Source: Escherichia coli (GTDB lineage: Bacteria > Pseudomonadota > Gammaproteobacteria > Enterobacterales > Enterobacteriaceae). From it: a DNA stretch of 64,000 nucleotides. Each line of letters starts with the position of its first letter. Position 1 is the first letter of the stretch. Location: the NCBI RefSeq assembly GCF_003334315.1, contig NZ_QOWR01000017.1. One strand, given 5' to 3'. The position numbers were made by a program, and so were the translations under genes. Below the pieces are notes generated by a model. It ran no database searches, was not told the origin of the DNA, and saw nothing but the letters and a program-made list of their open reading frames with translations. This document shows positions 45,975-49,837 of this stretch, in pieces.

Positions 45975-46517
45975 ATGATTATCTATTTACACGGTTTTGA
46001 CTCTAACAGTCCGGGTAACCACGAGAAAGTCTTACAATTGCAGTTTATTGACCCGGATGTACGCTTGATAAGCTACAGTACGCGGCATCCGAAACATGAT
46101 ATGCAGCATCTGCTTAAAGAAGTGGACAAAATGTTGCAACTGAACGTTGACGAGCGTCCGCTAATTTGCGGCGTTGGCTTGGGCGGATACTGGGCGGAAC
46201 GGATTGGTTTTCTTTGCGACATCCGCCAGGTGATCTTCAACCCTAATTTGTTCCCTTATGAGAACATGGAAGGCAAGATTGATCGCCCGGAAGAGTATGC
46301 CGATATTGCCACTAAGTGTGTGACCAACTTCCGTGAGAAGAATCGCGATCGTTGCCTGGTGATTTTGTCGCGTAATGATGAAGCGCTTAACAGCCAGCGG
46401 ACATCTGAAGAGTTGCATCATTATTACGAGATTGTCTGGGACGAAGAGCAGACGCACAAATTCAAGAATATCTCCCCGCATTTACAGCGCATTAAAGCGT
46501 TCAAAACCCTCGGGTAA
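45975..46517 (+). CDS. ycfP: UPF0227 esterase-like protein YcfP
   Basis: ORF 45918..46517 trimmed to [18 protein letters not shown] (180 aa). Confidence 0.85.
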
Positions 46518-46528
46518 ATGCCCTCGTC

Positions 46529-46645
46529 GCATCAGGTAACCTTGCCGGTACCTGATGCGCTCCGAATTCTGTGGGTCGGATAAGGCGTCCACGCCGCATC
46601 CGACAGTCGAGCATCAATGCCTGATGCGCTTCTTATCAGGCCTAC
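46529..46645. repeat. REP/BIME cluster (ycfP-ndh spacer)
   Basis: Three palindromic units: gcatcaggtaaccttgccggtacctgatgc, gtcggataaggcgtccacgccgcatccgac, gcctgatgcgcttcttatcaggc. Confidence 0.75.
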
Positions 46646-46916
46646 CGAACGCCCTGCATACACCCCTCACTCTATATCACTCTCACAAATTCGCTCAAAT
46701 AATAAACAATAAACTCTGTTTTTTGATCTCACCCGGTAAAGTCGCCTATCTTTTCAGCAACAAAACTTGATTAACATCAATTTTGGTATGACCAATGCAC
46801 CATTCATGTTATTCTCAATAGCGAAGAACATTTTCATTGCTGTAACCTGTTGTTAATTAAGAGCTATGTTAATAACCATTAATTAACAATTGGTTAATAA
46901 ATTTAAGGGGGTCACG

Positions 46917-48221
46917 TTGACTACGCCATTGAAAAAGATTGTGATTGTCGGCGGCGGTGCTGGTGGGCTGGAAATGGCAACACAGCTGGGGCATAAGCTG
47001 GGACGCAAGAAAAAAGCCAAAATTACGCTGGTCGATCGTAACCACAGCCACCTGTGGAAACCGCTGCTGCACGAAGTGGCGACTGGCTCGCTTGATGAAG
47101 GCGTCGATGCGTTGAGCTATCTGGCCCATGCGCGCAATCATGGTTTCCAGTTCCAGCTGGGTTCCGTCATTGATATTGATCGTGAAGCGAAAACAATCAC
47201 TATTGCAGAACTGCGCGACGAGAAAGGTGAACTGCTGGTTCCGGAACGTAAAATCGCCTATGACACCCTGGTAATGGCGCTGGGTAGCACCTCTAACGAT
47301 TTCAATACGCCAGGTGTCAAAGAGAACTGCATTTTCCTCGATAACCCGCACCAGGCGCGTCGCTTCCACCAGGAGATGCTGAATTTGTTCCTGAAATACT
47401 CCGCCAACCTGGGCGCGAATGGCAAAGTGAACATTGCGATTGTCGGCGGCGGCGCGACGGGTGTAGAACTCTCCGCTGAATTGCACAACGCGGTCAAGCA
47501 ACTGCACAGCTACGGTTACAAAGGCCTGACCAACGAAGCCCTGAACGTAACGCTGGTAGAAGCGGGAGAACGTATTTTGCCTGCGTTACCGCCACGTATC
47601 TCTGCTGCGGCCCACAACGAGCTAACGAAACTTGGCGTTCGCGTGCTGACGCAAACCATGGTCACCAGTGCTGATGAAGGCGGCCTGCACACTAAAGATG
47701 GCGAATATATTGAGGCTGATCTGATGGTATGGGCAGCCGGGATCAAAGCGCCAGACTTCCTGAAAGATATCGGTGGTCTTGAAACTAACCGTATCAACCA
47801 GCTGGTGGTGGAACCGACGCTGCAAACCACCCGCGATCCAGACATTTACGCTATTGGCGACTGCGCGTCATGCCCGCGTCCGGAAGGGGGCTTTGTTCCG
47901 CCGCGTGCTCAGGCTGCACACCAGATGGCGACTTGCGCAATGAACAACATTCTGGCGCAGATGAACGGTAAGCCGCTGAAAAATTATCAGTATAAAGATC
48001 ATGGTTCGCTGGTATCGCTGTCGAACTTCTCCACCGTCGGTAGCCTGATGGGTAACCTGACGCGCGGCTCAATGATGATTGAAGGACGAATTGCGCGCTT
48101 TGTATATATCTCGCTATACCGAATGCATCAGATTGCGCTGCATGGTTACTTTAAAACCGGATTAATGATGCTGGTGGGGAGTATTAACCGCGTTATCCGT
48201 CCGCGTTTGAAGTTGCATTAA
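46917..48221 (+). CDS. ndh: NADH dehydrogenase II (NDH-2)
   Basis: 434 aa from TTG 46917 ([17 protein letters not shown], Rossmann fold) with SD aagggg 7 nt upstream; no in-frame ATG available upstream. Confidence 0.9.
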
Positions 48222-49048: not shown

Positions 49049-49681
49049 TTATTTCACCAGTTCGGGCCATAAACGCAAAGTCGTTCCGGCAATCTGCATC
49101 AGTTTTTCCAGCGATGCACCTTCGCGTGCGCTGATCGACATCCCCTGAATAATACAATTAAGGAATTCTGCCAGATGTGTCACGTCACAGTGGGGCGGGA
49201 TTTCCCCGCGCGCTTGTCGTTGACATAAAAACTGCTGCAAAGTGCGCTCTTGCATCGCATGGCGTGATTTCAACGTATTGGCGATATCTCCTGAATCTGG
49301 GGAGAGGGTGGTGCAGTTGTTGATCATGAAGCAGCCTGCCGGGGTGTCTTTGCTGGTAAAGCAGTTGGCGATGGCAGCAAAATAGTCAGCCAGCGCAGAC
49401 TCCACGCTTTTCTCTTCACAAAACAGCTGTGCTTCATGCTTAGCGGCAAAACGATCGATATAGCGGTCGAGAACGGCACGAAATAACCCCTCTTTGTTGG
49501 TAAATTCCGCGTATAGCGTGGGCGCTTTGGCTCCGGTCGCTTCGACGAGGTCCGCAAGAGAAGTCGCTTCATAACCGTGTTGCCAGAACAATTTCATGGC
49601 CTTATCAAGCGCGGCATCCCTGTCGAACACTTTTGGGCGGCCACGGCTTTTTTTTACACATTGTGTTGAGTCAGTTGCCAT
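49049..49681 (-). CDS. comR: TetR-family transcriptional repressor ComR (YcfQ)
   Basis: ORF 49049..49759 trimmed to MATDSTQCVKKSRGRPKVFD (210 aa); N-terminal TetR HTH. Confidence 0.85.
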   Translation of the reverse strand: MATDSTQCVKKSRGRPKVFDRDAALDKAMKLFWQHGYEATSLADLVEATGAKAPTLYAEFTNKEGLFRAVLDRYIDRFAAKHEAQLFCEEKSVESALADYFAAIANCFTSKDTPAGCFMINNCTTLSPDSGDIANTLKSRHAMQERTLQQFLCQRQARGEIPPHCDVTHLAEFLNCIIQGMSISAREGASLEKLMQIAGTTLRLWPELVK

Positions 49682-49837
49682 GATGCCGTTGTACCTGGTG
49701 ACTGTGAATGAAAGGTTATTATAAAAATAATCACCTCCGTTCACCAGTCCAGATCCCATAAAAATAATTGCTTTCTATTTAACTGAAATTTAAAGATTTT
49801 TAAATTAATTAATGATTGTTATAAAAAATATCTTGTA

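Follow-up and report, generated by a model that had tools for sequence, protein, structure and literature searches.

Opposed ArcA boxes as the probable origin of a paired AT-rich octamer and of an RNase III-cut hairpin in the Escherichia coli ndh leader

Background

The DNA just upstream of the ndh coding sequence of Escherichia coli holds the self-complementary octamer TTAATTAA twice within a short AT-rich block. A first-pass annotation of the stretch of E. coli DNA analyzed here (64,000 nucleotides, referred to as the window) had regarded this block, upstream of the coding sequence, as carrying sites for a regulator that recognizes AT palindromes, had named FNR, Fis and IHF as the proteins to be footprinted there, and had placed the start of ndh at a TTG codon. 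The locus raises the question of which protein reads the two octamers, whether they act in the DNA or in the transcript, and where translation of ndh begins. The original observation is real but ordinary: the region belongs to the well-studied E. coli ndh gene, and its initiation codon, promoter, ArcA site and RNase III site have each already been published for exactly this sequence.

Methods

Positions are given in window coordinates, obtained by subtracting 1,119,168 from E. coli K-12 MG1655 genome coordinates (NC_000913.3); positions 46432-47132 correspond to 1165600-1166300 of that genome, with no differences. The orthologue sample was composed of the ndh loci of 80 Enterobacteriaceae species plus the window, giving 81 loci with 73 distinct sequences. 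A more distant sample held three Erwiniaceae and Shimwellia; the protein matches listed all had at least 84% identity, and Yersinia, Serratia and Vibrio fell outside. ArcA sites were scored using a weight matrix derived from 114 other boxes published by Park et al. 2013, the ndh box being excluded. The RNase III data were those of Gordon et al. 2017, whose reads were mapped to NC_000913.3.

Results and discussion

The ndh locus and its translation start

The gene neighbourhood is nagZ, ycfP, ndh, ycfJ, and an 86-nt query spanning the element gave matches of at least 95% identity in 5425 of 5426 complete E. coli genomes. The features of the region are listed in Table 1.

Table 1. Features of the ndh promoter, leader and coding region in window coordinates
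Feature	Position	Strand	Source or remark
FNR site I TTGATTAACATCAA	46767..46780 (centre -50.5)	.	Myers et al. 2013; highly conserved; outside the interval of the finding
Pndh transcription start	46824 (genome 1,165,992)	+	PMC10301672
Leader RNA hairpin, imperfect inverted repeat	46843..46896	+	24 pairs; loop 46868-46871; +20 to +73
Weaker ArcA-like box TTGTTAATTAAGAGCTAT, opposite orientation	46850..46867	+	Matrix score; headed by first octamer
First TTAATTAA	46853..46860	.	+30 to +37 of transcript
Three-direct-repeat ArcA site TTATTAACCAATTGTTAATTAATGGTTATTAA	46869..46900 (+46/+77)	-	Park et al. 2013; spans 'ttggttaataa'
Strong ArcA-P box TTGTTAATTAATGGTTAT	46872..46889	-	Park et al. 2013 Table S3; matrix 18.9 bits; contains second octamer
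RNase III-dependent coverage gap	46875 (genome 1,166,043)	+	Gordon et al. 2017 Table 1; hairpin apex
Second TTAATTAA	46879..46886	.	+56 to +63 of transcript
Shine-Dalgarno sequence TAAGGGGGT	46904..46912	+	Direct reading; G run ends 5 nt before TTG
TTG initiation codon	46917..46919	+	RefSeq start; genome position 1,166,085
ndh CDS (NADH:quinone oxidoreductase II, 434 aa)	46917..48221, stop codon included	+	ORF, RefSeq annotation

Read directly, the codons following TTG 46917 are ACT ACG CCA TTG AAA AAG, giving M-T-T-P-L-K-K, and the N-terminus of mature Ndh is presumably Thr-Thr-Pro. The choice of this TTG by the first-pass annotation was borne out: RefSeq places the start there, Young et al. 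1981 (Eur J Biochem 116:165) have 'UUG initiation codon' in the title of their paper, and a start codon occupies the position in all 81 loci. The weak TTG is retained in 68 of these Enterobacteriaceae loci. Seven loci, those of Kluyvera and its relatives, have ATG, and six, from Raoultella, Yokenella and a few others, have GTG; the position is fixed and the codon itself variable.

Other in-frame codons were considered as the ndh start. TTG 46890, which lies inside 'ttggttaataa', is also in frame with ndh and is where the listed open reading frame begins, a fact that had gone unmentioned. This codon lacks a Shine-Dalgarno sequence and is in frame in just 30 of the 81 orthologues; it sits within an invariant CAATTGG, and small indels shift its frame among loci. 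In 55 of the 81 loci there is no alternative in-frame start upstream of the ndh start. The in-frame TAA that had been reported at 46884-46886 is present, 33 nt 5' of TTG 46917, and constitutes the last three bases of the second octamer. Downstream, further in-frame candidates are TTG 46929, GTG 46941 and ATG 46974. A start at ATG 46974 would cost the protein its GGGAGG dinucleotide-binding motif, and since the solved NDH-2 structures align to Ndh from residue 4-7 onward this codon was excluded.

The run 'aagggg' does precede TTG 46917, but at a distance of 6 nt instead of the 7 nt first given. Judging from the known anti-Shine-Dalgarno sequence, TAAGGGGGT could form nine contiguous pairs with the 3' end of 16S rRNA, one of them G.U, and its G run ends 5 nt before the start codon in 69 loci and 4 nt before it in the other 12. 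Translation from UUG 46917 would be served by the unusually long Shine-Dalgarno sequence UAAGGGGGU. What marks a UUG-initiated gene was found across the 81 loci, namely a Shine-Dalgarno sequence at a working distance, a conserved start position and upstream alternatives whose frame is not conserved. As with other non-AUG starts in E. coli, the UUG of ndh is accompanied by a strong Shine-Dalgarno sequence, here 5 nt before it, and, going by the title of Young et al. 1981, ndh is among the earliest documented UUG starts in this organism. The ndh start at 46917 is settled and was already known in 1981.

The octamers lie in the transcribed leader

The octamer stretch turned out not to be upstream promoter DNA. 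Counted from the transcription start at 46824, it occupies transcript positions +30 to +77, and the interval singled out in the first-pass annotation corresponds to the 3' two-thirds of the ndh leader, which is 93 nt long, plus the start codon. The hexamers of Pndh (PMC10301672) are TTGGTA (-35, 46783-46788) and TATTCT (-10, 46810-46815), separated by a spacer of 21 bp, and the start at 46824 fits the value of -50.5 given for the centre of the FNR site. A simple sigma-70 promoter scan of 46480-46980 gave no match, the 21-bp spacer being outside what the scan allows.

Two copies of TTAATTAA were confirmed in the leader, at the coordinates of Table 1 and not at 46855-46862 and 46880-46887 as first reported, and 'ttggttaataa' is present at 46890-46900. 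Over the whole window the octamer occurs 4 times where 1.13 occurrences would be expected, and none of 100 shuffles reached 4. The leader is poor in G+C (29%, and 21% across 46843-46904), and on this ground the repeat could be taken for a functionless chance product of an AT-rich leader; however, when the 93-nt leader was dinucleotide-shuffled 20,000 times, two or more copies turned up at a frequency of just 0.001. Moreover, in the 81 Enterobacteriaceae loci the block 46842-46900 is conserved to the same degree as the core promoter (46762-46815), whereas the first 18 nt of the leader, like the hairpin loop, vary freely. This pattern of conservation already refutes a chance origin, to which we assign virtually no probability.

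The octamers belong to the arms of one long inverted repeat, which had been missed. Its arms, each of 25 nt and imperfectly matched, run from 46843 to 46867 and from 46872 to 46896. Being self-complementary and present twice, TTAATTAA might serve as an operator for a dimeric regulator of AT palindromes such as FNR, and 46879-46888 does share 9 of 10 positions with the actual FNR site. On the other hand, FNR binds upstream, at -50.5, and not at the octamers (Myers et al. 2013), and the best match by inspection to the FNR consensus TTGAT-N4-ATCAA within 46850-46919, TTAATTAACAATTG, agrees in 4 of 5 positions of the left half and 1 of 5 of the right. In the orthologues the first octamer is preceded by an invariant TTG and the second followed by an invariant CAA; as read from the sequence, these flanks extend the octamers into ArcA half-boxes and not into longer octamer-centred palindromes. 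An operator of this palindromic kind is in our judgement very improbable. A second FNR site of ndh lies at -94.5, also upstream.

Two ArcA boxes facing each other

In an ArcA box, TGTTAA-like elements recur as direct repeats at a distance of 11 bp (Lynch & Lin 1996; Park et al. 2013), and TTGTTAATTAA is a classic ArcA box. The documented binder of the block, ArcA-P, recognizes such direct repeats, at variance with the proposal of a protein that reads AT palindromes. Two things give the octamers their palindromic look: TTAATTAA forms the self-complementary junction in the middle of a classic ArcA box, (W)GTTAATTA(W), and there are two such boxes turned toward one another. In broad terms the prediction of a protein-bound AT-rich stretch holds. 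It was mistaken about the type of site and about the regulators it named, left out ArcA-P, and overlooked that the stretch is transcribed.

Park et al. 2013 list the ndh box as 'ttgttaattaatggttat' on the minus strand with 18.7 bits, under a ChIP peak (ChIP-chip and ChIP-seq), and their supplement gives 3.6, 12.5 and 8.0 bits for the three repeats of TTATTAACCAATTGTTAATTAATGGTTATTAA. The second octamer lies in the very site listed there, without any difference. When the window was scanned with our matrix, the minus-strand box at 46872-46889 ranked first of 127,966 positions; a second register of it (46883-46900, minus strand) ranked second with 13.3 bits, and the opposed plus-strand box at 46850-46867 ranked seventh with 11.7 bits. 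On the same matrix the known ArcA boxes score 9.3 bits at the lowest and 16.0 bits at the median, and the minus-strand box of ndh is within their range. The plus-strand box, TTGTTAATTAAGAGCTAT, has a perfect first repeat and, in E. coli as in most genera, a poor second one. It is absent from the published ArcA list and, compared with published ArcA operators, might represent either a single-repeat site or an auxiliary one. Rolfe et al. 2012 found that ArcA-P represses ndh transcription in vitro and predicted ArcA sites at +36, +52, +57, +66 and +68 of ndh.

The two boxes differ in how they are conserved. Across the 73 distinct orthologues no high-information position of the minus-strand box (3-6 and 14-17) varies, and such variation as it has falls on the least informative positions 8, 12 and 13 (Spearman 0.49, p = 0.04). 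Its score is 15.7 bits or more in each of the 81 loci, from 16.5 to 19.6 bits in the three Erwiniaceae and 12.3 bits in Shimwellia. The plus-strand box ranges from 9.6 to 21.7 bits across the orthologues, with a median of 12.9, and the relation between conservation and information is not significant (Spearman 0.24): its first repeat is kept, and its second repeat departs from the pattern, with the key T replaced by C in 50 of 73 sequences.

We conclude that the two copies of TTAATTAA are very probably the centres of opposed ArcA-P boxes in the leader of ndh, that translation starts at UUG 46917, and that the hairpin formed by this leader is cut by RNase III. In the proposed mechanism, two (W)GTTAATTA(W) boxes in opposite orientation, a strong downstream box and a weaker upstream one, would both be occupied downstream of the transcription start. 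Phosphorylated ArcA bound at +27 to +77 would repress ndh when the quinone pool is reduced, likely by blocking promoter clearance or elongation. FNR bound upstream, and the nucleoid proteins IHF and Fis with overlapping footprints, would act alongside ArcA-P. As with most ArcA sites, the downstream box of ndh serves in repression and overlaps the promoter or lies past it.

ArcA alone does not account for all the conservation in the block. The low-information spacer positions of both boxes are nearly invariant in the 73 orthologues, the 5' arm of the repeat is conserved although the second repeat of the plus-strand box has C in place of its key T in most of them, and the variable positions of the 5' arm show mostly transitions that keep G.U or A-U pairing. 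These results suggest an extra constraint on the block, either RNA pairing or overlapping IHF/Fis sites.

The leader hairpin and RNase III

The inverted arrangement of the two boxes makes the leader RNA fold into a hairpin, which would be largely a by-product of operator symmetry. The core of the hairpin is perfect over 12 pairs (46849-46860 with 46879-46890). The fold has an energy of -17.2 kcal/mol (z = -4.72), and none of 200 shuffles folded as well. RNAalifold recovered the same helix from the 81 sequences, with a covariation term of -0.24 kcal/mol. RNase III substrates have a transcribed stem of at least about 20 bp, a length exceeded by the 24 pairs of the ndh leader. Gordon et al. 2017 tabulate a site 'intergenic ycfP-ndh' at which the wild type gave 0 reads and the mutant deleted for rnc 108, and cleavage in vitro is scored 'Y' in the same report, for a substrate (46521-47279) that also held the upstream REP hairpins. 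The mechanism would thus run from the inverted boxes to an AU-rich hairpin of the leader and to its cutting by RNase III in vivo.

These data also bear on the possibility that the block is primarily an RNA element, in which selection acts on the hairpin (46843-46896) for a role that it has in its own right, the ArcA boxes being secondary; RNase III processing might, for example, reshape the 5' end and tune the weak UUG translation, or another RNA-binding factor might be involved. Such an element could coexist with the ArcA explanation. The high stability of the fold for its composition, its recovery by RNAalifold and the reads seen at the apex in the rnc mutant are all in agreement with it, as is the conservation of the 5' arm beyond what the ArcA matrix demands. 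Over the 73 distinct sequences, 94.4% of the cells of the helix are paired. The pair 46857/46882 occurs as U-A, U.G and C-G in several genera; the compensatory C-G was found in 5 sequences, with U.G intermediates, at this one pair of the 24, and 3 of 500 shuffles reached that count. Four further variable pairs alternate only between Watson-Crick and wobble pairing. Among the more distant relatives, Erwinia and Pantoea still have the hairpin, in imperfect form.

Against a primary RNA element, 13 of the 24 pairs never vary and are uninformative either way. The covariation score was 0.068 compared with a shuffled mean of 0.070, and four of five whole-structure measures, among them the number of covarying pairs, did not exceed the shuffles, the count of compensatory cells being the exception. 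The pair 46857/46882 is mismatched in 12 sequences, and at 46864/46875 a C.A mismatch was seen in 50 of the 73. A search of Rfam with the hairpin matched no family and gave just chance microRNA-like matches with E around 1-10, and Gordon et al. 2017 describe the RNase III cut as being without effect on the stability of the ndh transcript. Furthermore, two inverted protein sites give a hairpin automatically. A block that is first of all an RNA element therefore appears rather unlikely to us, and opposed ArcA boxes are preferred as the origin of the repeat. Reading the block in DNA or in RNA is not separated by the Erwiniaceae and Shimwellia sample because ArcA box and hairpin both persist there.

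As in the rnc and pnp leaders and the other sites of Gordon et al. 2017, the 5' UTR of ndh has a long stem, an RNase III-dependent gap at the apex and a transcript that was cleaved in vitro, according to the entries of that study. Cleavage destabilizes the mRNA in the case of the rnc and pnp leaders, whereas for ndh the same study gives the transcript stability as unchanged. The stem of ndh also differs from those leaders in being nearly pure A-U and in that its sequence is at the same time a DNA operator.

IHF, Fis and a possible double role of the block

The second candidate for the extra constraint is a platform for IHF and Fis (and HU), by which the DNA would be bent downstream of the start and open-complex formation repressed, the octamers being no more than AT-rich parts of these sites. 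IHF and Fis reportedly leave footprints at about +26 and about +51, respectively, overlapping the AT-rich block. An IHF-like core, TAACAACAGGTTA, is found at 46843-46855 on the minus strand, centred at +26, with its mirror image at 46884-46896. Binding of HU and IHF at the ndh promoter is cited in the literature, and the occupancy of ndh seen by IPOD-HR is attributed partly to IHF. However, the IHF pattern with one mismatch had 123 matches in the 64 kb, too many to count as evidence; sites of degenerate binders are not expected to stay invariant over 60 bp in 80 species; and the invariant positions coincide with the GTTA cores of the ArcA boxes. A block that is chiefly such a platform is possible but doubtful, and we keep to the opposed ArcA-P boxes, with IHF and Fis acting alongside.

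As a more speculative step, the 54-nt palindrome may be doubly coded, as an operator for ArcA (with IHF/Fis) in the DNA and, in the RNA, as a hairpin that is itself selected and that, through its processing by RNase III or through a further factor bound to it, adjusts the weak UUG translation. We consider this combination unlikely, although it would explain the invariant spacers, the wobble-preserving transitions of the 5' arm and the pair that takes U-A, U.G and C-G states. No link between the ArcA site and the RNase III site was found in the searchable literature. For annotation these results are of little consequence. They advise caution with an 'AT palindrome' spotted by eye, which can be two opposed direct-repeat boxes that automatically give a leader hairpin. 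The wider question is whether the same 54 bases serve as DNA repressor site and as RNA processing signal for a respiratory enzyme held at low dosage through a weak, conserved start codon.

Green, Guest and co-workers (1994-2004) described sites for FNR, IHF and Fis in this same promoter; the FNR sites are upstream, outside the block, and none of the three proteins reads TTAATTAA as a palindrome. As a separate observation, GTTAATAACCATTAATTAAC agrees by eye with about 10 of the 19 positions of the Fur consensus.

Promoter-proximal sites

The element TTTGGTATGACCAAT, located at the -35 region of ndh, was found to be nearly invariant, with a mean conservation of 0.99 over the 81 species. It fits the PdhR box (ATTGGT-N3-ACCAAT) reported for ndh. 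Occupancy of this region in IPOD-HR data has likewise been assigned to PdhR.

The scan with the ArcA matrix also revealed an ArcA-like box that corresponds to an ArcA site predicted at -57, to which Rolfe et al. (2012) refer. In published ChIP-seq data the ArcA peak is centred at about window position 46848, between this box and those of the leader. Neither of the other two copies of the leader octamer TTAATTAA was among the top ArcA-matrix matches in the window scan; the one at 49805-49812 lies just outside the 5' end of a TetR-family ORF (49049-49759, minus strand).

Features of the ndh region and further octamer copies in the window
Feature	Position	Strand	Remark
REP-type repeats	46574-46642	both	between ycfP and ndh; match naRNA4
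Terminator-like match	46611-46627		within the REP repeats
ArcA-like box	46760-46777	minus	10.4 bits with the ArcA matrix; overlaps FNR site I
TTTGGTATGACCAAT	46782-46796		overlaps the ndh -35 hexamer
Start-codon hairpin	46910-46922		five pairs, GGUCA/UGACU
TTAATTAA copy	34138-34145
TTAATTAA copy	49805-49812

Upstream, the palindromic repeats between ycfP and ndh matched the Rfam family naRNA4 (RF02564) on either strand, with 56.5 and 52.5 bits, slightly below its gathering score of 59.5. They contain the only terminator-like match of this intergenic region.

Leader variation within E. coli

At least two haplotypes of the ndh leader occur in E. coli, differing at positions 46868 and 46877. The GTDB representative strain E69 carries C in the hairpin loop at 46868 and T at 46877; the latter provides an additional A-U pair in the leader hairpin and makes the ArcA box more similar to the variant commonly found in other genera. 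Identity over the 86-nt element was 95-99% in 1059 of 5425 genomes. In the K-12-derived laboratory strain ER1709 the promoter and leader are identical to those of the window, despite the annotation of ndh (locus L001, 1918-3221) as a frameshifted pseudogene in RefSeq.

Start codon of ndh

A small hairpin can form at the UUG start codon, with the first U in its 3-nt loop and the following UG in the stem, where the two final G residues of the Shine-Dalgarno sequence are also paired. Such a structure might further dampen initiation, and similar pairing is possible in species using ATG or GTG as the start codon. The Shimwellia blattae locus (L085, 640-730) lacks the equivalent of 46912-46921, including the TTG, and its ndh starts at an ATG in the codon matching Leu5 (46929), indicating that the first four Ndh residues are dispensable. 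Several 430-residue database entries reflect this type of start or a similar call.
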